Shown: positions 10,401 through 30,974, counted from the first letter of the stretch. The stretch: 64,000 nucleotides of DNA from Thermoanaerobaculia bacterium (GCA_963666565.1 OY762911.1:4160001-4224000), one strand, 5' to 3'. Numbers and translations: made by a program. Notes: a model not told the origin generated them from the letters alone.

Positions 10401-10417
10401 CGCCGGCTGGAAGCGCC

Positions 10418-12088: not shown

Positions 12089-12144
12089 CTTCTCTCCGGC
12101 CGTAGCAAGCAAGGTGACGCCGGAGTACTTGGTGTTTGTCATCG

Positions 12145-14835: not shown

Positions 14836-14853
14836 CGGCGGTCCCGGTGGGGC

Positions 14854-14896
14854 CTGGGTGCGCGGGTCTTCCGACCCGCTGCCGCCGAAGGCGGCC
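14854..14896 (-). repeat. REP-like palindromic repeat, copy 1 of 9 (core GCGGGTC-GGAA-GACCCGC-GCACCCAG)
   Basis: ctgggtgcgcgggtcttccgacccgctgccgccgaaggcggcc. Confidence 0.85.
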
Positions 14897-14917
14897 GCAG
14901 TCGCTTCGCTGGCGCGC

Positions 14918-16024
14918 ATGAGACTGGCCGCGTACCGGCTGCGCCGGCGCTCTCGCCGGCTGGCGGTGGCGGCCGCGGACTCGTCGGCCTTGCAGAGGCT
15001 TCCCCGGCGACGGGCCGTCGAGGCGGCAGGAACCCTGGGGCTTGCCGCGCTTGCCGCGCTTGCCGCGCTGGGCTGCGGCGCCAACGCGCCGCCTCCGGCC
15101 GACGGCGACGGCGGCACTCCGCCGCCAGTGGCGGCGCCGGAGTTCACCGCGCCGATCGTCTTCCAGCGTTTCGAGAACACAGGTGCTACGCCGAAGATGC
15201 CCGGCTTCTACGGCGGCGCGGACATCTGGATCATGGAGGGCGACGGCAGCGGCGTACGCCTGGTACGAAAGGGCGTGCCGCAGCACCTGGACCACCCGTC
15301 CCTGACCTTCGATCTGCGGAGCGTCGTCTACGCCGAGTTCACCGACGCGGAAGCCGGCGTCGAAGCCGGGGCCCGGATCTTCCGCGAGGATCTGGCGACC
15401 GGCGAACGCGAAGTGCTGCGCGAAGTCGAGGGGTGCGCCGTCCATCACGCCAGCGTCTCCCCGATCACCCGCCAGCTCGTCTACGCCCGGAACTGCCCCG
15501 AAGGCGACGGCTTCAACCAGGGACTGATCGTCGAGATCGGCGCCCGCCGCCGGCTCGATGCGGCCCAGACCACCGCGCTCCGCGTCGGCAACGGCGTCGG
15601 CCTGCCACGCGCCGTGCTGTTCCAGGCCGAAGGCGAGCCCGTGGACGGCGAGCGGCGGATGGAGATCGCCATCATCCGCTTCGACGGCTACGGCCAGGGC
15701 ACCTACGCCGCCCTCACCGACCGCGACCACCGCCACCGCCGGCCCGCCGTCTCGCCCGACGGCCGAACCATCGCCTGGCAGACCAACCGCGAAGGCCCCG
15801 ACGACGACATCTTCCTGGCCGACATCGACGGCTCGAACCAGCGCCGTCTCACCGTGTCCGACGCCAACGACGGCCACCCCTGGTTCTCCCGCGACGGCCG
15901 CTGGATCGTCTTCGAGTCCGACCGCTCCGGTAACTGGGAGTTCTGGAAGATCGAGATCGAGACCGGTGAGGCGGTGCAGTTGACGGACGATCCGGCCTAC
16001 GTCAGTACGCGGCCTCGCTGGTAG
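14918..16024 (+). CDS. TolB-like/PD40 beta-propeller lipoprotein
   Basis: LAALGC lipobox-like sequence; PAVSPDGRTIAW, PWFSRDGRWIVFESDRSG; start uncertain. Confidence 0.85.
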   Translation: MRLAAYRLRRRSRRLAVAAADSSALQRLPRRRAVEAAGTLGLAALAALAALGCGANAPPPADGDGGTPPPVAAPEFTAPIVFQRFENTGATPKMPGFYGGADIWIMEGDGSGVRLVRKGVPQHLDHPSLTFDLRSVVYAEFTDAEAGVEAGARIFREDLATGEREVLREVEGCAVHHASVSPITRQLVYARNCPEGDGFNQGLIVEIGARRRLDAAQTTALRVGNGVGLPRAVLFQAEGEPVDGERRMEIAIIRFDGYGQGTYAALTDRDHRHRRPAVSPDGRTIAWQTNREGPDDDIFLADIDGSNQRRLTVSDANDGHPWFSRDGRWIVFESDRSGNWEFWKIEIETGEAVQLTDDPAYVSTRPRW

Positions 16025-16200
16025 GGCATTCCCTCTTGTAGTATCCCACCTGTGACGAAACGGACGAGCATCGTGACAACACCGGCGGCGCCCTCTACCC
16101 TCTCGTCGAAACGTGAGTGGCATGCACGCGATTCTGTTCCAGTCCTAAGCGTCGCGACGGTGTCGCTGCTGGCACCGCTCGTGCCGAGTCGGGGCGCTGC

Positions 16201-17451
16201 ATGAGGATCGACTACCGCGACCCGCAGCACGAGCGGTTGCCGCACATCGTCCGGTTCTCGGGTGGCCGCTCGTCGGCCGCGATGACCTTCCTGCTGGCAG
16301 ATGCCGGCGTCCTGCAACCGGAGCGCGGCGACGTCGTGCTCTTCGCGAACACGTCCGCCGAACACCCGGGCACCTACACCTTCGCCGCCGAGTGCAAACA
16401 CCGGGTCGAGCAGGAGTATGGGATTCCGTTTCTCTGGTATGAGTTCTGCACCGTCGAGGACGCTTGGCGGGGCTCTTACCGAAGGAAGCTCTCCTACCGT
16501 CTGGTAGACGCCGTACCGGTCCAACGGGATGCCCAGCGCGGCTACCGCTCGAACGGCGAGGTCTTTGAGGAGCTCCTGTCGTTCCAAGGAATGCTGCCGA
16601 CGCCGATGTCGCGCTCCTGCACGTCGAAGCTGAAGCTCTACCCGCAGCACCTGTTGCTGGCCGAGTGGTTGGGGCCTGGCGACGGTCCGGCACACGACGG
16701 CCACCATGCGGAGCGGCCCTTCATGACCGCAGACGCGGCGATGCGCCTCTACCGCAAGAACCGCGGGAGCGCGAGCGAGGACAGCTACCGAGAGCGCGTC
16801 GCCTGCATGATCGGAAAGCCGCCGGCGCGGCAGAAACAGCGCTGGAGCGACTTCACGTCTCCTTCGTCCGACAGATGGGCAGCTAGGGAGTGGGCGCGAA
16901 ACCGTCCGCGGCTCGTCGAGCTCTGGGGGCGCAAGGCCGCCCGCTTCGTGACCCTACTGGGGCTGCGCGCGGACGAGCCCAGTCGCGTACGGCGAGTCGT
17001 GTCGCGATCTTTCTACGCCGAGGATGCGCCCAGGCGCCACTGCTCGGTGCGCACCCAACCGCCAGGCGAACGACCCTACTTCCCGCTCTTCGACGCGGGC
17101 TTCGGCACTGAGGACGTTCACGAGTACTGGAACGGCCGGAACTTCGACCTGGCCTGTCCATCCCATGCCGGCAACTGCGTCTTCTGCTTCATGAAGGGAA
17201 CGGAGCAGTTGGCGCGAGCATCCCAGCTCGAGGACTCGCTGCGCCAAGAGGGACGACCTTCGGACATTCGGTGGTGGGCGGCGATGGAGCGGAAGTACCG
17301 CCGCGAGGCGCCGAAGCGAAACGGCGAAGGCGTTTCCCGATTCGGTTTCTTGGGCGTATCCGGCCCGACCTACGAACAACTGGCGGCGGGCGACCCCGGT
17401 CGGCGAACCCGCTTCTCCGGCGGCGAGCCCGCCTGCGACTGCACGGACTGA
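16201..17451 (+). CDS. PAPS-reductase/PP-loop family, Cys-rich protein (DndC-like fold)
   Basis: VRFSGGRSSAAM, FANTSAEHP, RSCTSKLK, LGLRADEPSRV, GNCVFCFMK, C-terminal CDCTD. Confidence 0.8.
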   Translation: MRIDYRDPQHERLPHIVRFSGGRSSAAMTFLLADAGVLQPERGDVVLFANTSAEHPGTYTFAAECKHRVEQEYGIPFLWYEFCTVEDAWRGSYRRKLSYRLVDAVPVQRDAQRGYRSNGEVFEELLSFQGMLPTPMSRSCTSKLKLYPQHLLLAEWLGPGDGPAHDGHHAERPFMTADAAMRLYRKNRGSASEDSYRERVACMIGKPPARQKQRWSDFTSPSSDRWAAREWARNRPRLVELWGRKAARFVTLLGLRADEPSRVRRVVSRSFYAEDAPRRHCSVRTQPPGERPYFPLFDAGFGTEDVHEYWNGRNFDLACPSHAGNCVFCFMKGTEQLARASQLEDSLRQEGRPSDIRWWAAMERKYRREAPKRNGEGVSRFGFLGVSGPTYEQLAAGDPGRRTRFSGGEPACDCTD

Positions 17452-19389
17452 ATGGCGGATCTGCACTTCCCACGCACCTGGAAGTCCGAAGGGCTCTCGG
17501 TCCAGTCGATGGCCCAGCACGACGGTTCCGCCGACCCCGTTGTCCGCGAGCTGCTTCAGAACTGCCTGGACGCCGCGCGCAAGGCGGGCCGGGCGACCCG
17601 CGAAAGCCCCCTGCGGGTGGCCTTCTCGATCAACGAGTGGCAGGTCGACGACTTACCGGGCATTGCAGCGTATCGGCGCGCATTCGAGGCGGCACGGAGA
17701 GAGGAACCCGCCGACCGGGCGACTCCGGCCGCAGCGGAGGCGATCAGACGCATCCAGAAGGCTCTGGACCAGGAATGGACGAGAGTGCTGTTCTGCGCCG
17801 ACAACGGCCACGGTCTGAATCGGGACCGGATGCGCGCGATCCTGTCGGAGGCACGCGGCGACAAGGGCGGTGACCGGCAGCTCGCAGGCTCCTATGGCCT
17901 CGGTCATCTGACCGCCTTCTCCGCCTCTGATCTTCGCTACGTCCTCTACGGCGGCCTGTCGAGCGAGGGCCTCTGCGTAAGCGGTCACGCGATCCTGGCC
18001 TCTCACTTCGATACGGCCGCCGGCCTCCACCGCGCCGGCGAGGGCTTTTGGACTGACGATCCCGAACCCGATCTGCATTCGTGCGACTTCCCGAACGAGG
18101 TCCCGCCGCTGCTGGAAGTCGAGATGGAAGAGATCGCGAGCGAGGACGCAGGTGGTGCCGGCACCGTTGTCTGCATTACCGGCTTCAACCACTTCCGGGA
18201 GCACGACGAACAAGCCGCAGTGAACGAGATCCTCCGCGTGGCGGCCACTAACTTCGTCGCAGCCATCGCCCGGGGGGAAATGGAGTTGGAGGTTCTGGCG
18301 GAGTCGAACGATCTCGAAGAGCGCCTCGACCGGAGGACATTGCAGGACCGCCTCAAAGCCCACTCGGGCCAGCAGCGCAGCCGCCGCGGTTCGGGGGGCG
18401 GCTGGCTTCCCGGCGCGCAGGCGTTCGCGGCTTGGCGGACGCTCCAACAGGGACGGAGGCTGGACGAAACAGAAGCAGGGGTGGAAGTGCTTCTGCGGCC
18501 AGTGACGGACCAGCCCAGTGCCCGCGGCCGAGTCAACGTGTTTCGAAACGGCATGTGGATCACGAACAGCGCGCCGGAGCTTCAGCCTGGCAGCTTTGTC
18601 GGCGCAAGACCCTTCGACGCGGTAGTCCTGCTCGAAGAAGGCGATCTGTTCGACCTCGTTCGCGCTTCGGAAGGGCCCGAACACCGAGGGATCGACCTGA
18701 AGCGGCTGAGCAAGGCTAGGCGCCGTGCTCTCGTTGCTGACTTGAACCAACTCGCGCAACGCCTGCGAATGGCAGCCGGGGAAGCAGCGGCCGCCGACCG
18801 GTTCCGGCCTCCGGGTTTCGCCGTGTTCGAGGGCAGCGACCTGAGAAGGGCTGAGCGGTTGCGCCCCCTGAGGCATCGGACGAGCGATGGACAGGAAAAA
18901 CCCAGCGCGCCTAGCCCCGGACCTGGGAAAGGCCCCCAACCGGTTCCCGGCGAACCGAACCCCAGAAACCTAAAGCCGGGCCGCGCCTTGTCCATGCGAG
19001 CAGCTTGCCGCCCGCTGCTGAACGGAGACGGGCTGGTGGACCGGGTCGCCGTCGACCTTGAGGTTCGCGACAGTCGTCTAACCCAGGCGTCTGAGCTTGG
19101 CTTCCGATTGCGACAGGACTCGGGCTCCGATGCGTCCTGCGAACAACCGTTCCCGCCGGTCTGGCTGGACCTGAGATCGATCGAGATCGTGGACGCCGCA
19201 ACGGCTGCCGGAGGCTCGAGGGCGCCCATCGGCCCGTCGAACGGAAGCGTCAAGGAACTTTCCCTGCCGGTCGGTGTCTCCCGGGTCATCGTCAGTCTCG
19301 GCGAACCGCTCGCCGACACCCGTGGCCTTCAGGTGGACCTTGTCCACAGGAAGGCGGAACGAGTGACCGCTCCCCAGGGGAAGCCATGA
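17452..19389 (+). CDS. GHKL (HATPase_c/MORC-like) ATPase
   Basis: RELLQNCLDA, ADNGHGL, GSYGLGH, GTVVCI; ATG immediately follows the upstream TGA. Confidence 0.8.
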   Translation: MADLHFPRTWKSEGLSVQSMAQHDGSADPVVRELLQNCLDAARKAGRATRESPLRVAFSINEWQVDDLPGIAAYRRAFEAARREEPADRATPAAAEAIRRIQKALDQEWTRVLFCADNGHGLNRDRMRAILSEARGDKGGDRQLAGSYGLGHLTAFSASDLRYVLYGGLSSEGLCVSGHAILASHFDTAAGLHRAGEGFWTDDPEPDLHSCDFPNEVPPLLEVEMEEIASEDAGGAGTVVCITGFNHFREHDEQAAVNEILRVAATNFVAAIARGEMELEVLAESNDLEERLDRRTLQDRLKAHSGQQRSRRGSGGGWLPGAQAFAAWRTLQQGRRLDETEAGVEVLLRPVTDQPSARGRVNVFRNGMWITNSAPELQPGSFVGARPFDAVVLLEEGDLFDLVRASEGPEHRGIDLKRLSKARRRALVADLNQLAQRLRMAAGEAAAADRFRPPGFAVFEGSDLRRAERLRPLRHRTSDGQEKPSAPSPGPGKGPQPVPGEPNPRNLKPGRALSMRAACRPLLNGDGLVDRVAVDLEVRDSRLTQASELGFRLRQDSGSDASCEQPFPPVWLDLRSIEIVDAATAAGGSRAPIGPSNGSVKELSLPVGVSRVIVSLGEPLADTRGLQVDLVHRKAERVTAPQGKP

Positions 19390-20156
19390 TCCCCGTGCTG
19401 CGCCAGGACGGTTCGAGTCTGGACTGGAAGTCCGCCACGTACCATGTGGACGTAGAGGCGAACGGCACTGGTGCGGTCGTCACTCACGAACTGAGAGACG
19501 CACCGGAGTTGGTCAGGCTGATCGAAGACGGTGCCGCCGCCTATGCCGTGGAAGCGCGCTGCCCTAGGACGCTCTTCGCCCGAACGTGGCTGAGCCGCAA
19601 GCAGCGGCTGGAAGTGGACTGGCGCGAGACCGACGTGGACGGCCAAGTCTTCCTGTTCCCCGGCGTAGTGGCCCTGAAGGAGACGTCCTTGGCGACCGCC
19701 GGCCTTATCGAACTATGGGAAGAAGATCAGGTCCGCGTGCCATTGGGCGCATGGCTCGCACGCGGCGCCGAGTTCGCCGCCAAGAATCTCGCCGCGTCGC
19801 TGATCGAGTTTCGCAAGGACGAGTCGCTTCAGTCGGGACGAATGAGGGTGGTCGAGGACACTAGCGGCGACGATGCCCGTTTCCTGGTCAAGCTCGCCCC
19901 AGAGTTGTACCAACGCGCAACGCAAGGGGACCGGGATGTCCAGGTGGCCGGGCTAATCGCCGCGTTCGCCAAGCTGCCGGACTCTCCACGCTTCGCTGAG
20001 GACTCGGCTAGTCCGGTCGCACGGATGCTCCGGGATCGGCTCGAGAGCGCGGAAGTTCCGACTTGGGACGACGGTTACGACTGGGATCCGGCTTGGGCCG
20101 CGACCACGATCGAGAAGTTCTACCCGGCGACCGCCGAAGACGAGACAGCGCCTTGA
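19386..20156 (+). CDS. Hypothetical protein (256 aa) in the modification operon
   Basis: ATGA overlap; globular, beta-rich N-half (AYAVEARCPRTLFAR). Confidence 0.75.
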   Translation: MIPVLRQDGSSLDWKSATYHVDVEANGTGAVVTHELRDAPELVRLIEDGAAAYAVEARCPRTLFARTWLSRKQRLEVDWRETDVDGQVFLFPGVVALKETSLATAGLIELWEEDQVRVPLGAWLARGAEFAAKNLAASLIEFRKDESLQSGRMRVVEDTSGDDARFLVKLAPELYQRATQGDRDVQVAGLIAAFAKLPDSPRFAEDSASPVARMLRDRLESAEVPTWDDGYDWDPAWAATTIEKFYPATAEDETAP

Positions 20157-21142
20157 CACTGGAAACGAACGGTTTCCCTGCCGGCGAGGCAAAGTCGGCA
20201 TCCAGTCTCGCCGACGAGAGTCTTCGGGACCGCTACGGCCAGTGGGTGGCGGAGCTGATCTGGGTTGCGCGGGCCGAACGGCACCGGAACGATGCCGAAC
20301 GGGAACGCCGGCATCGCCATGTAACCCAGCGCCAACGCGAACTGCGCCGAGCGATCGGGGACGGGCCGAACACGGCCGCTGCGTGGCTTCGAACACAACT
20401 AGGGCTGGAGGAATCGGGAGCGCTCCTGATCGAAGCGCCGCAGCTGCCCCGGCCACTGACGGCCGACGAGTTCATCGAGCCGCCGTTCGAACTGGAGCTA
20501 GAGATCGGTCAAGCGCTTTCGGCCGAGATCACTACGCGAGACGCCGCCCGTCCCTGGTTCTGGCTGCTCTGCCACATCGCGTGGCTCGAACGGGGCGACA
20601 TCGCAGACAACGTTCGAAGGGCCTTCTGCTGGAGCAGCGCCGCCGCCGGCAAGTCGGACGAAACCGACCAGTTGGAGGCGGAAACCCGCAACTTCCTGCG
20701 CCGTACCGGCGGAATCGAGATGGTCCGAGGCAAGGTATCCGTACTCAGCGACTGTCCGCTCGCCCGGGCTTGGTGGCGTTACCGTCTTGCCCACAACGCG
20801 GCTCACACTGCAGGTGACGGAAAGGTCCTGAACGCCGCGGATGCCCACCGGTGCCTCCATCACAGCGGCCCGATCTGGGAGGAACTCGTTCGCCTGGGAG
20901 TGAAACGCCTGACCGTCGTCAACCACGACCGGGCCCGCGCCGCCGTTGTCGCGGCACTCGCCCAGGTCGTCTCAAGGGCAGCGCCCGATGGCAAGATCGA
21001 GTGGGGGACCCAGCACATTGCGCGAGCGGCCAAGGAACTCGGGCGGGAAGCGCTTGTCCGGTCGTTAGGACAAATCGAGTGGTCCGAGCTGTGCGGCATC
21101 GTGGAGAACGCGACCCCGGGGCCCGAGGGAGCCGCGTCTTGA
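20153..21142 (+). CDS. Hypothetical protein (329 aa), possibly DUF6339-like
   Basis: TTGA overlap; DAARPWFWLLCH and CPLARAWWRY motifs; family assignment is from memory only. Confidence 0.7.
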   Translation: MTLETNGFPAGEAKSASSLADESLRDRYGQWVAELIWVARAERHRNDAERERRHRHVTQRQRELRRAIGDGPNTAAAWLRTQLGLEESGALLIEAPQLPRPLTADEFIEPPFELELEIGQALSAEITTRDAARPWFWLLCHIAWLERGDIADNVRRAFCWSSAAAGKSDETDQLEAETRNFLRRTGGIEMVRGKVSVLSDCPLARAWWRYRLAHNAAHTAGDGKVLNAADAHRCLHHSGPIWEELVRLGVKRLTVVNHDRARAAVVAALAQVVSRAAPDGKIEWGTQHIARAAKELGREALVRSLGQIEWSELCGIVENATPGPEGAAS

Positions 21143-23241
21143 CCACCGCCCTCACTCTCCCGTCCTCACCGCCAACCCCCGGCAACCCTTGGGGCGTCGC
21201 CCGCACACCGCTCGTGCCCGGTGCCTATCGGCGCCGATACGGTGACAGCACGGCAGCTCGCGACCTGCGGAACGCGGTCGCCAATCCGAACCTGACGCTC
21301 CACGACTTGGGCGCGCGCTTCTGGGACAAAGCGCCTTGGTCGACCGTGCCTCGGAGGGCTTTCAAGAGCCTCCGCCTCCAGCTCGCGCGATTCCGGGTAC
21401 CCTCGGACGTCGAAGTGCTGGTCGCGGGTACGCGCACCGAGCACCTGTTGGCTCTGCCTCTCGGTACCCGCGCCCACAACTTCATCAGGATCGCCGGGCA
21501 GGAGGAAGCGGTCGAAGGTCGACTGCGGCGGACCCTAACGGCTGGCGACGTGCTGGCGTATCGGAATGCGGGCGTCATGGTACTGCTCGAACTGCTCGCG
21601 GTCGTCGAAGGTCATCGATTAGCGCAACGGCCGGCCTCGGAAGCGGGCGTTGACCGGCCAGCCGCTGAACAGAGCGAGCCATCGGACGACAGCGCAATCC
21701 TCTTGCCAAAGAGATTGATAGACCTGCTGGCGGTCGCTCGCGAGTTCCGCAGCGCCACAACTCTGAAGGAAGCGCTCGAACTCGATGGCAGCTCTCTTGC
21801 CGAGCGAACCGGCCTCGCGGCTGAACTGGACGCAGTGAGCCTCGACGACCTAGGGATCGGCGAGGGCATGACTCACGCAGCCGGTCTGCTCGCGGAGACC
21901 GAGGCCTTGGATTCGGAACTGACCCAGCATGAGGAGACGATCCTCCAACGTCGGCTCTTCCGCCGGCGGCCGGCCACACTTGCGGCGCTCGGCAAGCTAC
22001 AGGGGATCACAAGAGAGCGTGTCCGCCAGATCGAGTCCAAGCTGAAGAGGCGACTCGAGAGCCGCCTCGGGCGACGCGTCGGAATCGTAGCCGGTGCAGT
22101 AGCAGAACGGATCGCACCGATCTCCCGGCCCGAGGAGATCGACCGACAGATCGGAGCAGTCTTCGAAGGCCGAGATCATCCTTCGGTCCCACTCGCTTGC
22201 CGGATGCTCCGCAGCCGGCTGGGCTACCGCGCCAAAGGCGAACTGGAACTGAACGAGGACGCCTCCAAGGCAGTGACCGAGCTTCGCAGCTTCGCTCGCG
22301 AGCAGCAGGACGACGCCGGTCTGCTTGACGAGGACACGCTTCAGTCCCGGCTGGCTGACCTGTCCTGGGCGGAACACTGGGAACTGCTTGTCGAGACTTG
22401 CGGCTTTCACCGGATCGACGGCCTCCTGGGACTCCGCAACACGAAGAAGGCGCGGGTCAAGGCCGCCGTCCTGAACATCGGCCGGATCGCTTCCAGGGAA
22501 GAGATCGCGGCCAGATGCGGCCTCTCCCGGCAACGCACCGTCAGTTACCTCTCGGCACTGCCGTCTGTCGCTCGGGCAGATCGAACGCGTTGGGGCCTCA
22601 CCGAGTGGATCGACGATGTGTACGAAGGCGTCGCGAACGAGATCCTGCAGCGGATCGACGAGGACGGCGGCGCTACCCGTGTCGAACGCGTGCTCGACGA
22701 ACTGCCGCGACTGTTCGGCGCGACCGAGGCGACGGTCCGAGCGTACCTAGCAGCACCGCAGTTCGAGGTTCGGAGCGGCTGGGTTCGCCGGGCCGACCCA
22801 TCGGCAGTGCGACTCCGCCCGCTCGACGACGCGATCGACGGGCGGGACGAGCTCGGAAGGCCGTGCTGGAGCTTTCAAGTGAAGGCGGACTACTTCAAGG
22901 GTTACAGCTTGGCGGGCCTGCCGCCGGAGATCGCCCGTGAGCTGGGTTGCCCTCCGAACGGACGCACTGAAGTACGCCTTGTCGAGCCGTCGGACTGCCG
23001 CCCATTGAGCCTGACCTGGCGGCTCACTTCGTTGACGGGTCCCAATCTCGGCTACTTGTCCACGCCGCTGGAGCGCCTGGGAGCCAAGGCTGGCGACCGC
23101 GTGCAGCTCATCCTGCGCGGCAACGGCTCGGTCGAACTCCGCCGGAACGGTCGACGGGTGTCGCCTAGCGATCCAGGCGCCCCGCCCAAGCCTGCCGAGG
23201 AAATTCTCGAACGCCTCAAGCAAAGGCGCCAAGTGCTGTAG
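21139..23241 (+). CDS. Multi-domain DNA-binding protein: RNAP alpha-CTD-like, sigma-70 region 4 HTH and winged HTH
   Basis: LPLGTRAHNF...TAGDVLAYRNAG; TLAALGKLQGITRERVRQIE; ARADRTRWGLTEW; TTGA overlap. Confidence 0.78.
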   Translation: MTTALTLPSSPPTPGNPWGVARTPLVPGAYRRRYGDSTAARDLRNAVANPNLTLHDLGARFWDKAPWSTVPRRAFKSLRLQLARFRVPSDVEVLVAGTRTEHLLALPLGTRAHNFIRIAGQEEAVEGRLRRTLTAGDVLAYRNAGVMVLLELLAVVEGHRLAQRPASEAGVDRPAAEQSEPSDDSAILLPKRLIDLLAVAREFRSATTLKEALELDGSSLAERTGLAAELDAVSLDDLGIGEGMTHAAGLLAETEALDSELTQHEETILQRRLFRRRPATLAALGKLQGITRERVRQIESKLKRRLESRLGRRVGIVAGAVAERIAPISRPEEIDRQIGAVFEGRDHPSVPLACRMLRSRLGYRAKGELELNEDASKAVTELRSFAREQQDDAGLLDEDTLQSRLADLSWAEHWELLVETCGFHRIDGLLGLRNTKKARVKAAVLNIGRIASREEIAARCGLSRQRTVSYLSALPSVARADRTRWGLTEWIDDVYEGVANEILQRIDEDGGATRVERVLDELPRLFGATEATVRAYLAAPQFEVRSGWVRRADPSAVRLRPLDDAIDGRDELGRPCWSFQVKADYFKGYSLAGLPPEIARELGCPPNGRTEVRLVEPSDCRPLSLTWRLTSLTGPNLGYLSTPLERLGAKAGDRVQLILRGNGSVELRRNGRRVSPSDPGAPPKPAEEILERLKQRRQVL

Positions 23242-23259
23242 GCCGACCGGAGACGAACT

Positions 23260-25521
23260 GTGCTTGCTGACGAAGCGACGCTCGAACCGCGGCTTTATCG
23301 CCTGCCCGACGATCCTGTGGCGGATCGCGTGTTGATCCCCGGATTCCGTTCGGCGACATCGGTTCGGGGCGCGTTCGGTTGGTTCGGCGCCGGCTGGATT
23401 CGCCAACTTGCGCCGGGGCTTGCCCACTACCTGAACCGAGAAAGCCCGCAGCCGATCGAATTCACCGTGGCCCCCCTTCACTACGAACCGGAACTGGCAG
23501 CGATGAGAGCAGCCCAGACAATGTCGGCGAAACAGGCGACGGAGCGAGTGGCGCACCTATTCGTCAACGGTCGCGTCGACCGGTCCGCACTGGGCCGCCA
23601 CGCTCTGGACTGCTTGGCTTGGATGCTCACCTGTGACCTCCTCCGCCTGCAGGTCGCGGTGCCGGAATCCGATTCGAACTTCCACCCCAAGATGTGGCTC
23701 TTCTCCGACGGGGACGGTCGAGTGCTGGCCCGCGGCTCAGGCAACGCCACGGGTATGGGTGTTGCGTCAGGTATCGAGCAGATGGACGTTGACGTCTCCT
23801 GGATCAAGGAGAGCCGCCAGCGCGTGTTGCAGGGCGAGCGCATCCTTTGCGACTGGTCCAGCGCGCGTGGGGCCGGTATCGTGGAAGTGGTCCCTCTTCC
23901 AGAGGCGCTAAAGCGGAAGATCATCCGTGTGGCGCCGTCATCGGCACCAAGCCCCGACGACTACCTAGTGGCGGCCGCCGAAGACGGAAGCCCGCGGTGG
24001 GCGGTGGACGCCTGGCAACAACTGGACGCCCGCCTCCGCAGCGTTCGTGGCCGCGGATCGGCGCCCCGACTCGAGATTCCGGCGTGGCTCGAATGGGAGA
24101 CTGGCCACTACGGCCACCAGAAGGAAGCCGTGGATGCCTGGGAGGCAGAGCCGGAACCCGAACGCGGCACGCTCGCCATGGCGACGGGAGCGGGCAAGAC
24201 GTTGACGGCCCTGATCTGCGCTGCCCGGGCGCAGGACCGGCTGCCCGGCGGCTCGGCCTTCGCCGTGGTCGTCGCGGCGCCCTCCCGGCCCCTCCTGCTG
24301 CAGTGGAAGGAAGAGGTGTCGAAGTTCGGCGTCGCCGCAGAAACGCCAACCTTCTCTTCCGACACGGCCGCCTCCCTGACTAACTTCCTGCGCGGGCTGG
24401 ACGGTGATGGCACCCGGGTTGCGGTTGTGACCAACAACCTGCTCTGCACGTCGTCGTTCCAACGAACACTCGAATCGGGACTGCGCGGACGACCGTCGCT
24501 GCTGATCGCCGACGAAGCGCATCGGCTTGGCGCGGAAGGGTTCATCCGCCAGACGCCAAACTTCTTTGAACGGCGCTTGGCCCTTTCCGCCACACCGGTA
24601 CGCCAGTACGACCCGGATGGGACCGAACGGATCTTCGAGTTCTTCGGCCCACCCGTCTACGAGTTTGGTCTGGACCGGGCTATAGGCTTCTGTCTGGTCC
24701 CGTACGACTACCATGTTCACGCCGCAACACTGGACGAAGAGGAGACGGACGAGTTCACGCAACTGACCCGCAAGATCGGCGCGGCAATGGCCGGTGCCGA
24801 GGATCGAAAACCGAGCGACCGCGAACGAGAAGCCCTGAACGGGTTGCTGCTGAAGCGCCGGCGAATCATCGAGGCGGCGGAGGCGAAGATCCCGCTGCTC
24901 CAGGCCGTGCTGGAGCGCCGCGGACCGCGAAGGATCGAGCAGGCGCTGGTCTACGCATCCGCCAAGAAGCGGGACCAGTTCGAACGCATCGGCCAGGTAC
25001 TAACGCAACTCGGGATTCGCTGGGCACCGGTTACGCAAGAGGAGACAGCCCAACGGTCGAAGCTCGAAGGAACGTTGGAGGCGTTCCGCACGGGCGGCCT
25101 CCAAGTGCTCCTGGCGAAGAAGGTTCTCGACGAAGGCGTCGACATTCCGTCGATCCGCGAGGCGTACATCGTCGCCTCATCCACGGTCGAACGCGAGTGG
25201 GTGCAGCGCCGCGGTCGAGTGCTTCGCCGCCATCCCGGAAAGGAGTGTGCGGTCGTGCACGACTTCCTCGCCCTGCCGGTGGCGAGCACCGTCCGAGGGG
25301 GCGACCAACCGCTCAAACGGCTGGTACGGAGGGAACTGGAGCGAGCGCTCGCCTTCGCCGGATACGCTCGAAACGCCGCCGGCTCCGCAGGTGCGCTCGC
25401 CTGGATTGAGCGAATCCGCGAGACGTTCTGGCCAAGTCGGCGCCAGCGCTACGACCAACTCGCCGAAACGCCAAGCTACCAGAGAATCGCGCCAACGCTC
25501 GAGGGGAGAGACGCGAGATGA
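23260..25521 (+). CDS. PLD(HKD)-nuclease plus SF2 DEAH helicase (similar to dnd-associated restriction helicases)
   Basis: FHPKMWLFSD...GSGNAT; HQKEAV, ATGAGKT, DEAH, LSATP, LDEGVDIP, QRRGRVLR. Confidence 0.9.
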   Translation: MLADEATLEPRLYRLPDDPVADRVLIPGFRSATSVRGAFGWFGAGWIRQLAPGLAHYLNRESPQPIEFTVAPLHYEPELAAMRAAQTMSAKQATERVAHLFVNGRVDRSALGRHALDCLAWMLTCDLLRLQVAVPESDSNFHPKMWLFSDGDGRVLARGSGNATGMGVASGIEQMDVDVSWIKESRQRVLQGERILCDWSSARGAGIVEVVPLPEALKRKIIRVAPSSAPSPDDYLVAAAEDGSPRWAVDAWQQLDARLRSVRGRGSAPRLEIPAWLEWETGHYGHQKEAVDAWEAEPEPERGTLAMATGAGKTLTALICAARAQDRLPGGSAFAVVVAAPSRPLLLQWKEEVSKFGVAAETPTFSSDTAASLTNFLRGLDGDGTRVAVVTNNLLCTSSFQRTLESGLRGRPSLLIADEAHRLGAEGFIRQTPNFFERRLALSATPVRQYDPDGTERIFEFFGPPVYEFGLDRAIGFCLVPYDYHVHAATLDEEETDEFTQLTRKIGAAMAGAEDRKPSDREREALNGLLLKRRRIIEAAEAKIPLLQAVLERRGPRRIEQALVYASAKKRDQFERIGQVLTQLGIRWAPVTQEETAQRSKLEGTLEAFRTGGLQVLLAKKVLDEGVDIPSIREAYIVASSTVEREWVQRRGRVLRRHPGKECAVVHDFLALPVASTVRGGDQPLKRLVRRELERALAFAGYARNAAGSAGALAWIERIRETFWPSRRQRYDQLAETPSYQRIAPTLEGRDAR

Positions 25522-25751
25522 ACAATATCGACCGAGTGGCCGCGGAGATCCGCCAGCGCGCCGCACAGGAGTCGGTTGACGGACTGAGTGCGGACGAACT
25601 GGTCACCTTCCTGCTGGAAGTCGTGAACGTCGAGGATCTCCACCTTCGGCGTCCCCGGAACGTGCAGAAGGAGGTCGACACCATGGTGCGCGCATTGGCC
25701 CGGCGATTGGCCCCAAAGAACCCAACTCCGACCGGAGACAGCGGATGCTGA
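25518..25751 (+). CDS. Small helical protein (77 aa) between the helicase and the ATPase
   Basis: ATGA overlap upstream and 7-nt overlap downstream; same position as small partners of DndD/CxC-type ATPases. Confidence 0.7.
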   Translation: MNNIDRVAAEIRQRAAQESVDGLSADELVTFLLEVVNVEDLHLRRPRNVQKEVDTMVRALARRLAPKNPTPTGDSGC

Positions 25752-27994
25752 AGTTCAAGCGCATCGAGATCCGCAACTTTGCCGTCTTCGAGCACCTGGA
25801 GGTCGAGCCGTCGACGGATCCTGAGGGCCCGCTTACGGTTGTCCGTGCCGAGAATGGCTCCGGCAAGACGACCTTCCTGCGAGCCCTCCTCTGGGGTATG
25901 TATGGGGAGAAGGGACTGCCCGGAGCGAATCCCGGGCGCTACTCCGTCCATCCGGCATGGTGGCGCCCTGACGAGCAAGGAGTCCAGACGACGGTAACGA
26001 TCGAGTTCGAGACCGATGGCTCCGACCGACACGATCCCGCCGCCGGTACCAAGATGGACGCCTACCTGCTAAGTCGATCAGTGACGACAGTGAGGCGCGA
26101 TGCTGCCCGCGACGACGAGCCTGACTTCGAGCGCCGGGAAGAAATGCCCTCGCTCATGAAGCGAGTAGATTCGGGCGCTTGGGAACCGGCCAACGTAGGT
26201 GTGGACGCGGCCGTCCAACAGTTACTTCCCTGGGACCTCCGCGACTTCTTTGTCATGGACGCCGATCAGGCGGCGGACTTCGTGGGCGGTACCGAGAACC
26301 GTCAGATCAGCGTCCACGAGGTCGAGAAGAAGACAACGGACGCCGTTCGAAGTCTGCTCGGCATCGACGTCTTTGAGGCGGCGGCGAACCGCCTGCGGAA
26401 GGCATCAAGGAACTTCGGGAGCGAGGCGACGAAGACCGTCAAGGATCACGAACTCCACCAACTCCAGGCGGAGCAGAATCGCCTGGAAGATCGAGTGGAA
26501 CAGATCAAGGGCGATCTGGACAAAGCACGGGAGGACGCTCGCGACCTGAAGGGCAGGCTGGATGACCGCAGCCAGCGACTCAAGGAGGAACTCCTCCACC
26601 AAGGAGCGTACGAACCCCTGGTCAAACTCAGGGACGAAGCACGGAAGAAGCAGGAGACATCCCGCAACGCCCGTCGTGAAGCGGCCGCCGGTTTGGCGGC
26701 CGGGTTGGCGGACGCCTCACTCTTCGCACCGTTGGCGTCGCCGGCTCTCCTCCGCGTTGAGGGAGCCCTCAAGCCTCTCCATGACGCCGGCAGGATTCCG
26801 CTGAAGCACGTCAGCTTCGTTCGACAACTGCTTGAGCGCGGCGAATGCGTCTGCGGGCGACGCTTGGACACCGACACGGAAACGCGTAGCCGGGTCGAAG
26901 GGGAACTCGCACGTTCCGCCGAACGTGAAGAAGAGGCGGAGTACCTAGGGCGGCTCTATGAAGCGGCCGCTCACCATCGGGCGGCAAAGACGGGAGCCGG
27001 CTGGAGCGCACGCAAGAAGCGGCTCTCTGCCGAGATCGCGCGGGCCAACTCTTCGGCCAACGAAGCCAGCCTGGAGCTTCGGGACACGGAGCGGAAGCTC
27101 GACGGGATCGATCAGGAGAAGGTCCGGGTACTTCGCGCCGAAGAAGCGGCGCTCACGACCCAGTTGGAAAAGAAGCAGCAAACGGTCGGCAGTCTCAACC
27201 TTCAGCTTGAGACGATGTCGAAGTCGCTCTCCGGCGTAAGCAAGCGCCTCGTGGCCGCCCAGCGCAGGCATTCCGCAGCCGCCGACAGCACCGCCGCACG
27301 GGACCTGGCGAGCCTGGGAGCCAGAATTCTTGACGACTCGGTCGCGGAGCTAAGGAAGCGACAGGTGAAGGACCTCTCCGATCGAATGAAGCGCTTGTTC
27401 GACCAGATGGCCGCGAACGTCACGGACGCCGATTTCGACGGCGCCGAGGAAGGACGCGAATCAGTCCGCATGATCGCACGGGTCGGCATCCGCCCAGTCG
27501 AGGACAGCCTAGATCGCTTCGAGATCTTCGCCCTGAACCACCGCGACCGGGTCATGCCGCCGACCGAGATCAACGGCGCCTCTCGCAGGGTGCTCGCCGT
27601 GTCCTTCGTTCTCGCTCTCTGCCAGGAGTCCCGTACACATGCGCCGCTCATCGCCGACTCCCTGTTGAACTCCATGTCCGGAGCGGTACGACGCAACACC
27701 CTGAACGCTACGGTGGAGAACTCCGAGCAGCCGATCCTGCTGCTGACTGGGTCGGACCTGGAGGGAGAAACAGAGGTCGCAACGGTCCGCCGCTTCGGGG
27801 GTGCCGTCTACACGCTTACCGGGCAGTGGGACGCAGTCGCAGCCGGGCGGGGAGGCGATGTCGTCCGACAGACTTCAAGCAATGCCAATGTCGCCGTGCT
27901 GTGCAAGTGCGGGCCGCGCCAGTTCTGTGATGTCTGCGAGCGTCAGGGGCAGCGCGAAGCCGCAGGCTGGTCCGAACGCGCAGCGACCGACTAG
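25745..27994 (+). CDS. DndD/Rad50/SMC-like coiled-coil ABC ATPase with CxC zinc hook
   Basis: IEIRNFAVF, AENGSGKTT, FFVMDAD, coiled coils, ECVCG, PLIADS, C-terminal CKC..FCDVC. Confidence 0.87.
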   Translation: MLKFKRIEIRNFAVFEHLEVEPSTDPEGPLTVVRAENGSGKTTFLRALLWGMYGEKGLPGANPGRYSVHPAWWRPDEQGVQTTVTIEFETDGSDRHDPAAGTKMDAYLLSRSVTTVRRDAARDDEPDFERREEMPSLMKRVDSGAWEPANVGVDAAVQQLLPWDLRDFFVMDADQAADFVGGTENRQISVHEVEKKTTDAVRSLLGIDVFEAAANRLRKASRNFGSEATKTVKDHELHQLQAEQNRLEDRVEQIKGDLDKAREDARDLKGRLDDRSQRLKEELLHQGAYEPLVKLRDEARKKQETSRNARREAAAGLAAGLADASLFAPLASPALLRVEGALKPLHDAGRIPLKHVSFVRQLLERGECVCGRRLDTDTETRSRVEGELARSAEREEEAEYLGRLYEAAAHHRAAKTGAGWSARKKRLSAEIARANSSANEASLELRDTERKLDGIDQEKVRVLRAEEAALTTQLEKKQQTVGSLNLQLETMSKSLSGVSKRLVAAQRRHSAAADSTAARDLASLGARILDDSVAELRKRQVKDLSDRMKRLFDQMAANVTDADFDGAEEGRESVRMIARVGIRPVEDSLDRFEIFALNHRDRVMPPTEINGASRRVLAVSFVLALCQESRTHAPLIADSLLNSMSGAVRRNTLNATVENSEQPILLLTGSDLEGETEVATVRRFGGAVYTLTGQWDAVAAGRGGDVVRQTSSNANVAVLCKCGPRQFCDVCERQGQREAAGWSERAATD

Positions 27995-28012
27995 GGAACG
28001 GAGGAGCGACCC

Positions 28013-28516
28013 ATGAACTACTTCGAGAGCAGACTGCGAGCACAGGCCCACACACTCGCGCTGCCCAAAGATCTGCGCGACGACGTGGACCGCTATGTCC
28101 AGAGTCATCGACCCGGCGCGGATCCTGAGCAGGCACCGTTCCCGCGACGTCTCGATCTCTGGGCCTACGGGATCTTCGCGGCTCTGGCACTGGGACTCGA
28201 ACCGGAGGACCAGTCCAAGACAAGGCGAACCACCTACAAGTTCAAGGACACGGCATCCGTGAACATGTCGTCCGAACTCTGCGAACTGCTTGCTGTCGTG
28301 GCCGCGGCCGGCCTAGGACCCGAGAACGAACGGGTCACCGAACCAGCGGAGATCATCCGATACGCCAACTGCTTGGCCGCTGTCGGTTGCCCGGTCGTGA
28401 TCGGCGAACTCAACAAGGTGGACCTTCGGCTGACTCCGCTGGAGAAGATGGTCCGCCACGCGGAGACGCTACTTGAGAGGACTCAGGAGCACCTGAGAGC
28501 GGCGATACCAACGTAG
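28013..28516 (+). CDS. Dnd-associated/DndE-like small protein
   Basis: LPKDLRDDV...APFPRRLDLWAYGIFAAL...YANCLAAVG recalls dnd-associated protein 4; last gene of the operon; GGAGGAG RBS. Confidence 0.6.
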   Translation: MNYFESRLRAQAHTLALPKDLRDDVDRYVQSHRPGADPEQAPFPRRLDLWAYGIFAALALGLEPEDQSKTRRTTYKFKDTASVNMSSELCELLAVVAAAGLGPENERVTEPAEIIRYANCLAAVGCPVVIGELNKVDLRLTPLEKMVRHAETLLERTQEHLRAAIPT

Positions 28517-28865
28517 TCCTCGACGCCCGGCGACGAAGGTGACTCAGCATGACAGAACGGCATGTAGAGATTCAGGGACTCCAGTACAACCAGAACGGTT
28601 GCTTGGAGGAAGTACAACACGGGACGACTCCGCTCGTCACGGCGCGTGAACAAGCCATGGAGCGGATCATGCCGGAGTCCCAGCCGTATGAATGCGGAGC
28701 ACAATCACCCTATCTTCCCGGGGATGGGAGGGTTGCGGAAGATCAGGCCGTTGGTCCGCCGGCGAGGCGAGGGCAACATGGACGACATCGTGAGAGAAAA
28801 CCGGCGGTGAGTTCCCTCTACGGGGACACGAGCGCCCTCAGGAGCTCCGCGGAGGCCATGGCTGG

Positions 28866-29339
28866 ATGAAACCGAGTGTCTACATCGAGACCTCGGTAGT
28901 CAGCTATCTCACCGCTCGGCCTTCCCGGGATGTCATGGTCGCTGCCTACCAGGACGTAACGCAGCGCTGGTGGGCAAGTGCGCCCGCCAGGTTCCGGCTC
29001 TTCGCCTCCGAGCTGGTACACGACGAGGCCGGTGCCGGCGACACTGGTGCCGCTCGCGCACGCCAAGACGCCCTCCACGGGATTCCGCTGCTTGAAGCCA
29101 CCCGAGAAGACGGCGAGCTTGCAGCGAAGCTCTTTGAGTTCCGGGCCGTGCCGCGGAGCGCGGCGAACGATGCCGCCCATGTCGCCATCGCGGCCGTCAA
29201 CCGTGTTGACTACCTCGTTACCTGGAACTTCCGCCATATCGCCAACGCCGCAATGAGATCTAGAATCGAAGACGTCTGCAGCCGTGCGGGTCATCGGCCG
29301 CCCGTCATCTGCTCCCCCAACCAGCTCATGGAGACATGA
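28866..29339 (+). CDS. PIN domain toxin
   Basis: VYIETSVVSYLTARPSRD, DAAHVAIAAV, YLVTWNFRHIAN, PVICSPNQL. Confidence 0.9.
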   Translation: MKPSVYIETSVVSYLTARPSRDVMVAAYQDVTQRWWASAPARFRLFASELVHDEAGAGDTGAARARQDALHGIPLLEATREDGELAAKLFEFRAVPRSAANDAAHVAIAAVNRVDYLVTWNFRHIANAAMRSRIEDVCSRAGHRPPVICSPNQLMET

Positions 29340-29590: not shown

Positions 29591-29818
29591 ATGCGCATCA
29601 CAGTGACCATCGACGATGACGTGCTGGCTACCGCCAGGGCGTCGGCCGCGCGCAAGGGCTGCAGCCTGGGCCGCGCCCTGTCTGAACTGGCTCGGCGCGG
29701 ATTCACGACCGCCATCCCAGTCCGAAAGGGCGATGACGATACGGCGTTTGCCGTTCGCGCGGACGCGGAATCCATCACCAACGACGACGTACACCGATCC
29801 TTGGCCGACTGGCCGTGA
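29591..29818 (+). CDS. RHH/CopG-type VapB antitoxin; cognate vapC reduced to a stub
   Basis: MRITVTIDDDVLATARASAARKGCSLGRALSELARRG; an overlapping GTG AAG GCA CTG start follows with no full PIN ORF. Confidence 0.8.
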   Translation: MRITVTIDDDVLATARASAARKGCSLGRALSELARRGFTTAIPVRKGDDDTAFAVRADAESITNDDVHRSLADWP

Positions 29819-29882
29819 AGGCACTGCCAACCCGCTGATCGCCTTTGACGCCAAGAACGCTGCCTGGGCTCGCCGACTACGG

Positions 29883-30093
29883 TCAACTCTCCCCGAGGAG
29901 TCTCATCTCGTACGAGTTCGCCACCAAGAGGCGTCCGAGCGTGGCGAGCATCTCGAACGGATCACTCCCGTCGATCTTCTCCGCCTCCATCACTTCCCGC
30001 ACATCGCTCCGGCTGGTAGGCGGGATCCGCACCTCGAAGAAGGGCCAGAGGAAGTTCGCCCGGTAGCGCTCTGTTGTCTCCGGAAAGGCCGAA
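29883..30093 (-). pseudogene. HipA N-terminal (Couple_hipA)-like gene, 5'-truncated by ISL3
   Basis: AFPETTERYRANFLWPFFEVRIPPTSRSDV...DPFEMLATLGR; paralog of 34454-34948. Confidence 0.7.
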
Positions 30094-30974
30094 GGCTCTT
30101 CCGGGTTGATGGTGGAAATCGCGTAGTGTGGCGCGATGCGCGACACAGACTTGTACGGTCGGATTCTCGGCATCGAGAGTCCCTGGAAGGTGACGGACGT
30201 CGAGTTGCGGATCGAGTCCGGCGAGGTGGAGGTTCTCGTGGCTCGTGGCGCCGGCGAGTCCTATCGTTGTCCGAAGTGCGGCGGCGCTGCGCGCCGGCAC
30301 GATTCGCGTCGTCGGCGCTGGCGGCATCTGCCGACGTGCCAGTACCGGACGATCCTGACCGCGGACGTGCCTCGGGTGCGGTGCGCGGAGCACGGAGTGC
30401 TGACGATCGGCGTGCCCTGGTCGGACCCGACAAGTTCCACGTCGCGGCCCATCTGGGCGACGCCGTGAACCGGGTGCGGGTGGCGGAGCACCGAGAGCTG
30501 CAGAACCGGGGGGACGACCGGCTGGCCGGCACCCGGTACATGTGGCTGTACCACACCGACCGGTTGCCGGAGAGGCATGCGGCCTCCTTCAAGACCTTGG
30601 TGAACGCGACCTGGAAGACGGCGCGTTGCTGGCACCTGAAGGAGGTGGCGATGATGATGTGGGAGACGCGGGACCGCGTCGAGGCGCGTGAGACCTTCGA
30701 CGGCTGGTACTCGTGGGCGATCCGCAGCCGTCTCGAGCCCATGAAGGAAGTCGCCCGCATGATCAAGGCTCATCTCGACGGCGTGCTGAACGCGATCGAG
30801 CGGGGCGTCACCAACGCCCGCCTCGAAGGCATCAACTCGGTCATCCAGTCGCTCAAGAAGACCGCCCGCGGCTACCGGAACCGCGACCGGTTCCGCGACG
30901 CCATCTACTTCCATCTCGGCGGCCTGAACCTCTACCCTGATTCCCTCACGTTCCACACGAAACCCTGAAGAGCC
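30094..30974 (+). mobile_element. ISL3-family element, internally deleted
   Basis: 24-bp imperfect TIRs (ggctcttccgggttgatggtggaa vs revcomp ggctcttcagggtttcgtgtggaa); no target duplication. Confidence 0.88.
30136..30968 (+). pseudogene. ISL3 transposase remnant (zinc-finger N-terminus joined out of frame to the C-terminus)
   Basis: LGIESPWKV..CPKCG..WRHL..PRVRCAEHG..VPWS, then DKFHV...TNARLEGINSVIQSLKKTARGYRN in another frame. Confidence 0.88.

Follow-up and report, generated by a model that had tools for sequence, protein, structure and literature searches.

Organization of the gene cluster

The DNA analysed here (the window) is a stretch of 64,000 nucleotides (nt) from a Thermoanaerobaculia bacterium (GCA_963666565.1, OY762911.1:4160001-4224000). 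Nine open reading frames (ORFs), numbered g1 to g9, lie on its + strand between positions 16201 and 28516. An initial annotation, made from the sequence alone, had taken them for one distinct nine-gene DNA modification and restriction system, Dnd-like and non-canonical. The cluster is treated below as two parts: g1 to g4, a putative DNA sulfur-modification cassette of the phosphorothioate (PT) type, and g6 to g9, which match the described PbeABCD module, with g5 between them. The genes are as follows (PAPS, 3'-phosphoadenosine 5'-phosphosulfate; APS, adenosine 5'-phosphosulfate; aa, amino acids; HTH, helix-turn-helix).

16201 to 17451, + strand: g1, PP-loop ATP pyrophosphatase of the PAPS/APS-reductase-like clade, putative distant SspD homologue
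17452 to 19389, + strand: g2, predicted GHKL (Bergerat-fold) ATPase, 645 aa
19386 to 20156, + strand: g3, 256-aa partner protein, PDC-M33B homologue
20153 to 21142, + strand: g4, TTG start, 329 aa, rich in conserved W and R, no family
21139 to 23241, + strand: g5, TTG start, 700 aa, sigma-70 region 4 HTH
23260 to 25521, + strand: g6, GTG start, predicted PbeA
25518 to 25751, + strand: g7, 77 aa, in the PbeB position
25745 to 27994, + strand: g8, predicted PbeC
28013 to 28516, + strand: g9, 167 aa, in the PbeD position

ORF calls and junctions read from the sequence confirmed the annotated coordinates and stop/start overlaps, and the nine genes are co-directional and translationally coupled. 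The g1 stop abuts the g2 start (TGA then ATG), and the next three junctions are overlaps of ATGA, TTGA and TTGA; the TTG frame given for g5 was right (start at 21139). An 18-nt gap with GGAGAC separates g5 from g6, g6 and g7 overlap by ATGA, g7 and g8 by ATGCTGA, and an 18-nt gap with GGAGGAG precedes g9. The g1 frame is also open from a GTG at 16117, upstream of 16201. Terminator-like sites between 15500 and 29600 showed no excess (5, against 9.7 +/- 3.4 in shuffled sequences), with a single weak one on the + strand inside the cluster. The whole window has about 70% G+C; the G+C fraction is 0.60-0.68 at 16-36 kb and 0.69-0.73 over most of the rest.

Pfam and NCBIfam scans gave no family for g3, g4, g7 and g9. 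The domains first guessed held for g1, g2, g6 and g8, and for g5 in the sigma region 4 part only. The genome of origin (4.79 Mb, one contig, 97% complete) holds no paralogue of g1 to g5 or of g7 to g9 elsewhere. Related loci show 'conservation' of long antisense ORFs over g1 to g9 too (for example 17653-18939 on the - strand; up to 428 aa); these were rejected as genes and are shadow ORFs of high-GC sequence.

The PP-loop enzyme g1

The 416-aa g1 protein carries a PP-loop motif, SGGRSS, which is invariant at residues 20-25, and its AlphaFold2 (AF2) model (predicted local distance difference test (pLDDT) 79.4, predicted template modelling score (pTM) 0.84) has the alpha/beta adenine-nucleotide hydrolase fold. 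The protein is a PP-loop ATP pyrophosphatase of the PAPS-reductase-like clade. Its model was compared with 48,161 chains using VIA-align. The best matches were PAPS reductase 7rge (Z 10.8, root mean square deviation (rmsd) 3.7, 175 aligned) and APS reductase 2goy (Z 10.4, rmsd 3.7, 183 aligned), followed by CysD and CysH, with 6vpu at Z 10.3, and this fold agrees with the PAPS-reductase-like enzyme that had been placed at the front of the cluster. Foldseek returned nothing at E <= 0.001, the best match being APS reductase 4bwv (E 0.02), and PDB sequence searches with the g1 and g3 profiles gave no meaningful match.

The family models reach g1 weakly. Pfam PAPS_reduct gave E 0.0056 and 17.1 bits, below the 22.5-bit cut-off, and NCBIfam has no model for it. 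With PADLOC, g1 lies outside the SspD family model (PDLC02782), which it matched at 1.1e-7 with no single stretch passing alone, against 1.5e-134 for the true SspD of the same genome; BrxP was matched at 7.5e-4. An hhalign comparison of the g1 alignment with the genome's own SspD gave 95.5% (E 1.4e-8, 92 columns), with the PP-loop and an SRxCTxxLKLxP motif common to both, and g1 is assigned on these alignments as a putative distant SspD homologue. It is longer (416 aa against about 280 for SspD); a beta-hairpin is inserted, and the C-terminal half is large and bears Cys residues. Invariant or near-invariant in both cassette types described below are FSGGRSS, R138xC140T, K145, GLRxDE, NC326VxC329FxKG and a C-terminal C412xC414T[D/E]. 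With one Cys, a CxxC and a tail that bears Cys, this arrangement is reminiscent of how the Fe-S centre and catalytic tail are laid out in APS reductase. It also recalls the Cys triad and dyad described for DndC (PMC10853773).

The same fold would also serve if the sulfur were put on a base of the DNA, for example as a thiolated pyrimidine or purine, by the adenylate-then-thiolate chemistry of PP-loop tRNA thiolases, and the mark were read by Pbe, SspE-like and GmrSD-like proteins. Thiolase-type enzymes scored close to the reductases (NcsA Z 9.7, LarE 9.0, TtuA 8.4, ThiI-type 8.2), some g1 relatives are fused to a base-flipping C5 cytosine methylase, and the commonest cassette neighbours are of the DUF262/GmrSD type, enzymes that commonly act on base-modified DNA. 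A base mark is nevertheless considered improbable: SspD is the closest sequence relative, PAPS/APS reductases are the top folds, it is from PT systems that the effectors linked here (SspE and PbeABCD) are known, and to our knowledge thiolated bases do not occur in DNA as natural epigenetic marks. On the side of a base mark, the authors of the CxC survey introduced below write that CxC systems may use non-PT modifications (PMC10853773).

The genes g2 to g5

g2 was matched by PADLOC PDC-M33A (8.3e-19) and, below cut-off, by the NCBIfam sacsin-like ATP-binding domain (9.2e-7). Its GHKL boxes are invariant in 41 sequences (N box E33xxxN37xxD40, G1 D117xGxG, G2 G146xxGxG), and g2 is thus a predicted GHKL ATPase with every nucleotide-binding motif intact. 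g3 was matched by PDC-M33B (1.3e-6). Its AF2 model (pLDDT 93.4) combines an FN3/Ig-like beta-sandwich at the N terminus with a C-terminal half made of helices; no Foldseek match reached E <= 0.001, the best VIA-align match (Z 7.6, residues 3-132) was generic, and neither search returned an enzyme fold. g3 was considered as a counterpart of the SspB nickase and rejected for now, as an FN3-like sandwich with helices and no nuclease match. A predicted complex of g2 and g3 reached an interface score (ipSAE) of 0.47 against 0.00 for the best control, with runs agreeing on at least 68% of contacts and a partner pLDDT of at least 80; it weakly supports a g2-g3 complex, since 7 of 80 solved complexes, and both mismatched pairs that passed, scored 0.60 or below.

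g4 had no match in Pfam (E <= 1), NCBIfam or PADLOC, a 42-sequence profile matched no PDB sequence, and the Atlas gave nothing usable; 3 of 50 homologues had a sub-threshold match to DUF6339. In type-A cassettes the gene always comes after g3, and at some loci it is duplicated.

g5 matches Pfam Sigma70_r4 (3.7e-7, aa 261-302), and its NCBIfam sigma-factor matches span region 4 only. A search of 300 other genomes of the same phylum found three matches, all to region 4 only. g5-like genes occur in 5 of the 80 loci surveyed below (tblastn), within the Pbe-linked clade only and at varying positions (after g9 in locus L001, upstream in L005), and the type-B locus with Pbe genes (L098) has none. g5 is not part of the conserved cassette and is not needed for the linkage of cassette and Pbe. 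It is a clade-specific HTH protein and probably a regulator.

Conservation and spread of the cassette

A scan of one genome per species found 101 g1 relatives, of which 80 loci were kept and searched by tblastn with the nine window proteins. All of g1 to g4 were present, in order, in 75 of the 80 loci found through g1 (g2 in 79, g3 in 77, g4 in 75), and their order and strand relative to g1 never changed; two of the five loci without g4 are contigs under 4 kb. Genes of the g5-g9 types were found in 6 of the 80 (L001-L005 and L007, titled Thermoanaerobaculia and Candidatus Multivorans). Ranked by g1 identity, these make up six of the seven closest loci. The genes are arranged differently among the six, and L007 lacks g6 and g7. 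Because g1 to g4 are kept in 75 loci while the g5-g9 types occur only in the six closest, g1 to g4 are a mobile, self-contained four-gene operon (type A), autonomous of g5 to g9. Conserved synteny, which the initial annotation had expected for the nine genes, thus exists for g1 to g4 and, for the whole set, is confined to close relatives. Genes flanking the cassette on both sides are on the opposite strand in many loci. All-versus-all clustering of the ORFs of these loci found no gene family common to more than 10 loci besides the cassette and its antisense shadow ORFs.

More than 1000 g1 relatives were found at E <= 1e-3 in a library clustered at 90% identity (54-91% identity, full length), all unnamed or 'hypothetical'. 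In a profile search of 1.84 billion representatives, 2041 relatives were found at E <= 1e-3, 1168 at 1e-10 and 205 at 1e-30, the last number being representatives at 50% identity. Records with the g1 cassette are titled Thermoanaerobaculia, Dehalococcoidia, Longimicrobiales/Gemmatimonadota, Acidimicrobiales, Opitutales, Bryobacterales and others. g1 was present in 4 of 18 other genomes of the same genus.

Many of the cassette genomes carry sponge-associated titles (Candidatus Poriferisodalis, Poriferisocius, Hopanoidivorans cymbastelae and several Acidimicrobiales 'Candidatus Poriferi...'). At least six phyla are represented by genomes with such titles, whose g1 identity is 52-68%. Such a distribution suggests that the cassette has spread horizontally within one habitat.

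A second cassette type (type B) was found in another genome of the same genus (G362). There a g1 variant, 36-40% identical, is followed by a 382-aa gene, a g2-like gene (PDC-M33A 1.6e-30) and a g3-like gene (PDC-M33B 1.4e-5). The 382-aa gene encodes a cysteine desulfurase of the DndA/SspA type (SspA 4.2e-141, DndA 6e-141); it had been considered as a displaced g4, which was rejected (hhalign 0.1%). The order PP-loop enzyme, desulfurase, GHKL ATPase and g3-like protein was found in all six type-B loci examined, namely that of G362 and five among 50 type-A-carrying genomes that also hold type B; a g4-like gene was detectable in two of the six. The type-B subtype has more than 1000 relatives (clusters at 90% identity). 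At one locus (L100, G033:C1:618900-633100), a type-B cassette with desulfurase is placed directly upstream of one of type A and shares its strand. Two consecutive g4 paralogues occur in L040 and L043, and L036 has two copies of the cassette. Duplicated DndDE pairs have been described for Dnd, and the tandem cassettes and g4 paralogues (L100, L043, L036, L040) recall them.

The PbeABCD module

CxC systems, which are centred on an ABC ATPase with a CxC motif, were reportedly first described by Krishnan et al. in 2020. PbeABCD has been equated with this system by Rakesh, Aravind and Krishnan 2024 (PMC10853773). In that study, PbeA is a fusion of an HKD nuclease and a superfamily 2 (SF2) helicase, PbeB is small and evolves fast, PbeC is the ABC ATPase that has the CxC motif, and PbeD is a DndE cognate that contains a pair of ribbon-helix-helix domains.

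The genes g6 to g9 fit this description. g6 matched PADLOC PbeA over its full length (8.8e-150, aa 13-707). Below its 600-bit cut-off, NCBIfam TIGR04095 (dnd_restrict_1) gave 325 bits (6.7e-97). Pfam ResIII (6.7e-18) and Helicase_C (1.2e-7) were also found, as were GAGKT at 310, DEAH at 418 and SAT at 443. An HPK...GSGN stretch is visible by eye, and a strict HxK(4)D regular expression had no match. g6 is thus assigned as PbeA, a predicted nuclease domain of the phospholipase D (PLD)/HKD type fused to an SF2 helicase. g8 matched PbeC (1.6e-44) ahead of DndD (5.5e-22), with 95 bits for NCBIfam TIGR03185 (DndD), below the 245.85-bit cut-off. It has an NGSGKT loop and a CVC at 368-370, and is assigned as PbeC, a predicted CxC coiled-coil ABC ATPase and sister of DndD. 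g7 overlaps both neighbours, has no family match and is 32-72% identical among Pbe-linked loci; it is assigned as PbeB, the small fast-evolving protein, from position and size alone. g9, likewise from position and size alone, stands in the PbeD position; it had no match in PADLOC, NCBIfam or Pfam (E <= 1), and the DndE model TIGR03184 had none at E <= 1 in the genome.

By order, size and motifs, g6 to g9 are thus taken as the already described PbeABCD, and the claim of one distinct nine-gene system falls. A complete match to a described system had been named beforehand as an argument against novelty; g6 to g9, with PADLOC matches to PbeA and PbeC and by the published description, gave such a match, one half of that argument, and the whole set did not. 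The description of the set as not canonical Dnd or Ssp stands: no DndC, DndD or DndE match in the cluster exceeds its cut-off, and PADLOC found no SspB or SspC in g1 to g9. The novelty lies in g1 to g4, which had been treated merely as part of the whole.

CxC/Pbe systems usually stand in tandem with a modification module, and for them no PP-loop enzyme was known as a close stand-in for DndC, according to the survey (PMC10853773). Among 553 PbeAC pairs, dndCD lies within 10 kb of only 42.1%, and 165 have no modification gene nearby, by the counts given by Xiong et al. 2019 (PMC6459918).

Linked effectors, neighbours and a DNA-methylase fusion

Pbe genes are linked to both cassette types and in two phyla, with type A at six loci and with type B at L098 (Longimicrobiales, host G031), where PbeA (59% identical to g6) and PbeC (40% to g8) follow the cassette on the same strand. 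A full-length SspE gene (PADLOC 7e-264) starts 91 nt after g4 in L052, and a copy 82% identical to it is in the same place in L049. In L048 (Chloroflexota), an SspE-like gene (29% identical) lies beside g1 on the opposite strand. Neither SspD nor DndC was matched in the genomes of these three loci, for which completeness figures are absent. SspE reportedly requires host PT to be active (PMC9646914).

At loci without Pbe, 88 immediate neighbours were classified with Pfam. GmrSD_N was the commonest (9), followed by DAO (6), DUF885 (3) and N6_Mtase (3), and many of the neighbours are housekeeping genes (DAO, DUF885, ribosomal S7, EF-G/EF-Tu). PADLOC tallies of neighbours include HEC-05 (8), PDC-M55C (8) and mad2 (3), and also pAgo and PD-Lambda-5. 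Matches to GmrSD_N/DUF262 in 50 cassette genomes (190 in about 170 Mb) were compared by hand with the places of g1: 12 of the 150 matches listed, in 10 of the 50 genomes, lie within 12 kb of g1, where about 1.4 were expected. As defence genes cluster anyway, what this enrichment shows is the setting in a defence island, more than any specific partner.

One g1 relative of 823 aa (P0337) begins with a complete C5 DNA methylase (PF00145 3.9e-70, aa 8-386, PCQ and ENV motifs), followed at aa 388-803 by a full g1-family domain with FSGGRSS, NCVFCFLKG and a C-terminal CSCTD. In P0346 and P0331, the end of PF00145 is joined to the same g1-family domain at the same junction. The three are singletons from different sources (NCBI/ENA, Logan and JGI). 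P0346 and P0337 had been considered as desulfurase fusions, which was rejected, the extra domain being the DNA methylase. A metagenome scan with P0337 returned plain methylases only (227 relatives, 80 kept), none with a relative of g1 to g4. By joining a g1-family domain to a complete C5 DNA methylase, the fusion ties the family to DNA as its presumed substrate.

These observations also bear on the proposal that the cassette belongs to sulfur assimilation, to a cofactor pathway or to tRNA thiolation and merely sits in variable regions. The fold of g1 is that of PAPS/APS reductase and CysD, one relative is named PAPS reductase/FAD synthetase at its source, and the housekeeping neighbours would suit such a role. 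The methylase fusion and the GHKL ATPase as obligatory partner do not suit it, nor do the patchy distribution within the genus, the G+C content below that of the flanks, the tandem type-A and type-B cassettes, the g4 duplications and the enriched defence neighbours. A purely metabolic role is considered very improbable.

Sulfur-modification genes elsewhere in the genome

The statement that there is no ssp gene was correct for the cluster and not for the genome. A complete SspABCD set lies at C1:~1.687-1.694 Mb, in a region outside the window (L084, G000:C1:1678000-1697000), with these coordinates within the region:

9549 to 10391, - strand: SspD
10388 to 13876, - strand: SspC
13759 to 14757, - strand: SspB
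14811 to 15989, + strand: SspA

Beside it are a DUF262 NsnA-like gene (7635-8732) and an SF2 helicase (16192-17814) with weak matches to PbeA, type I and type IV models. The genome has no DndC (TIGR03183), no DndE (TIGR03184, E <= 1) and no true SspE, and its only DndD (TIGR03185) match is g8 (80-95 bits against the 245.85-bit cut-off). In g1 to g9, PADLOC found no BrxC, PglZ or BrxL. The sole PDC-M33C match of the genome (C1:3301206-3301532, 2.2e-15) lies outside the window, with no g2 or g3 paralogue there.

The two halves of the cluster may be unrelated neighbours in a defence island. Pbe would then act alone or with PT made by Ssp, and g1 to g4 would be a separate GHKL-centred defence related to PDC-M33, with the PP-loop enzyme serving as effector or sensor and making no self mark. 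The matches of g2 and g3 to PDC-M33A and PDC-M33B fit this proposal. So do the autonomy of the cassette, often bounded by opposite-strand genes, the other defence genes nearby (HEC-05, mad2, pAgo, PD-Lambda-5) and the Pbe systems that occur elsewhere without modification genes. It is opposed by the stop/start overlaps that continue through g4-g5, with just 18 nt between g5 and g6, and by the Pbe linkage, which survives rearrangement at six loci and recurs with type B in another phylum. The type-B desulfurase and the DNA-methylase fusion fit a modification enzyme better than an effector, and PDC-M33C is not in the cluster. On balance, an unrelated pair of systems is judged unlikely, though less so than a base mark.

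Proposed function

The logic of modification plus restriction put forward in the initial annotation remains the best reading of the locus. From the gene structure, homologies, folds, synteny, partner genes and methylase fusion, we infer that g1 to g4 make a PT-type DNA sulfur modification with a GHKL ATPase and that the cassette is here coupled to Pbe, which would read the mark. The probability of this integrated reading is put at about 0.5.

The mechanism would run as follows. g1 would be the PP-loop enzyme that inserts sulfur, corresponding to DndC, SspD and BrxP. Its PP-loop would activate the target with ATP, C140, C326 and C329 may hold an Fe-S centre, and the C-terminal CxC tail would carry sulfur from a cysteine desulfurase. 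Such a desulfurase is encoded within the cassette in type B, while housekeeping IscS/SufS or the genome's SspA would serve type A. g2 would be the NTPase that all known multi-gene PT systems require, drawn from the GHKL superfamily instead of the P-loop DndD or SspC/BrxC families and possibly working as an ATP-driven DNA clamp. g3 may act as the adaptor of g2, and the choice of site may fall to g4. PbeABCD would be the restriction or abortive arm, and g1 to g4 would replace the Dnd module, as Pbe sits here where it normally does behind dndCDEA.

Several observations weigh against this reading. The chemistry of g1 is not fixed by its modelled fold, because other PP-loop enzymes (GMP synthase, NcsA, LarE and TilS) score within 1-2 Z of the reductases, and its predicted homology with SspD covers only the N-terminal 92 columns. 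Structure searches found no nickase or DNA-binding fold in g3, and g4 has neither a family nor an assigned fold. In about 70 loci the cassette has no linked effector, and the SspE linkage amounts to two independent events. The complete SspABCD set, 2.5 Mb from the cluster, is a further point. SspD was found in 7 of 7 genomes with cassette-linked Pbe (the present one, G002-G006 and G031) and in 16 of 49 others; the seven represent about two lineages only, so no formal test is warranted. Because of these two findings, Pbe may depend on Ssp-made PT, with g1 to g4 merely adjacent. Finally, CxC/Pbe systems with no PT genes at all are on record (PMC10853773, PMC6459918).

A wider proposal is that type A and type B together are a fifth, mechanistically distinct, GHKL-driven family of DNA sulfur modification, found mainly in lineages titled as sponge symbionts, whose mark is perhaps not PT (for example a thiolated base) and is read by PbeABCD, SspE-like and GmrSD-like effectors. 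This is held tentatively, at slightly less than even odds. A family that runs on a GHKL ATPase would, if it exists, bring a new engine to the epigenetics of the DNA backbone or of sulfur. Because g1 falls below the Pfam threshold and has no NCBIfam model, gene-neighbourhood surveys that start from DndC or SspD would overlook it, and the family could account for some 'solitary' PbeABCD and orphan SspE genes.

Surroundings of the cluster

Two ORFs of 106 and 157 aa (28549-28869 and 28866-29339, + strand) directly follow g9 with a 4-nt overlap, a toxin-antitoxin-like layout; the pair has no Pfam family at E <= 0.001. Further downstream, a 450-aa ORF (29616-30968) with an odd N-terminal part is a partial ISL3 transposase (profile positions 82-238 of 240), and 31014-31553 encodes a 179-aa fragment, the C-terminal specificity domain of a Type ISP restriction enzyme. 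These pieces are debris of other mobile and defence genes beside the intact cluster. The neighbours had been described as decaying, which is partly borne out by this downstream side; upstream of g1, on the other strand, the genes are host-like and encode a PD40-repeat protein and a cytochrome c. The only notable repeats (29689-29963 and 34320-34615) are direct and consist of three collinear blocks of 97, 56 and 37 nt with 77-86% identity, spaced about 4630 nt apart. They bracket the insertion sequence and Type ISP debris and look like two diverged copies of one gene fragment. The window has no tRNA gene and no att-like repeats bounding an island.

Comparison with known systems

According to PMC12914056, the established PT systems number four (dnd, ssp, tdp and BREX type 4), and PT synthesis needs a protein with a PAPS-reductase domain and an NTPase, with DndA/SspA often replaced by IscS or SufS. 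All of them except tdp pair the PAPS-reductase-type enzyme with a P-loop NTPase. A GHKL-Shedu system has been described (PMC12137116); by title and abstract, that paper does not concern a PT system with a GHKL ATPase. In the literature searched, no description of g1 to g4, of type B or of PDC-M33 by name was found; the supplementary data of PMC10853773, PMC6459918 and PMC12914056 lie outside this search and may list such neighbourhoods. g6 to g9 are already known, g1 to g4 and type B are in no paper found, and whether the cassette counts as categorically new hinges on its chemistry.

The PADLOC candidate PDC-M33 resembles the cassette in that g2 and g3, and likewise the type-B pair, match its A and B components. 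It differs in its C component, which lies outside the cluster, and in that no PDC-M33 model matches g1 or g4. DndABCDE and BREX type 4 (BrxP/BrxC) share with the cassette a PAPS-reductase-like PP-loop enzyme and an NTPase, with a desulfurase optional in cis. Compared with Dnd, the cassette has an NTPase of another superfamily and no DndC, DndD or DndE match over cut-off; compared with BREX type 4, its g1 matches BrxP only at 7.5e-4, and BrxC, PglZ and BrxL are absent. SspABCD is similar in the putative homology of g1 and SspD, in having four components including an ATPase, in the SspA/DndA-type desulfurase of type B, and in the SspE gene directly downstream of the cassette in L052 and L049. 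In place of SspB (the DUF4007 nickase) and an SspC/BrxC-type P-loop ATPase, the cassette has a GHKL ATPase and two proteins without a family. The likeness to PbeABCD lies in the parts and order of g6 to g9 and in their place directly downstream of a putative modification module, as pbeABCD stands beside dndCDEA. The difference is that dndCDEA is found neither beside g6 to g9 nor elsewhere in the genome, and g1 to g4 with the sigma region 4 protein stand upstream instead.

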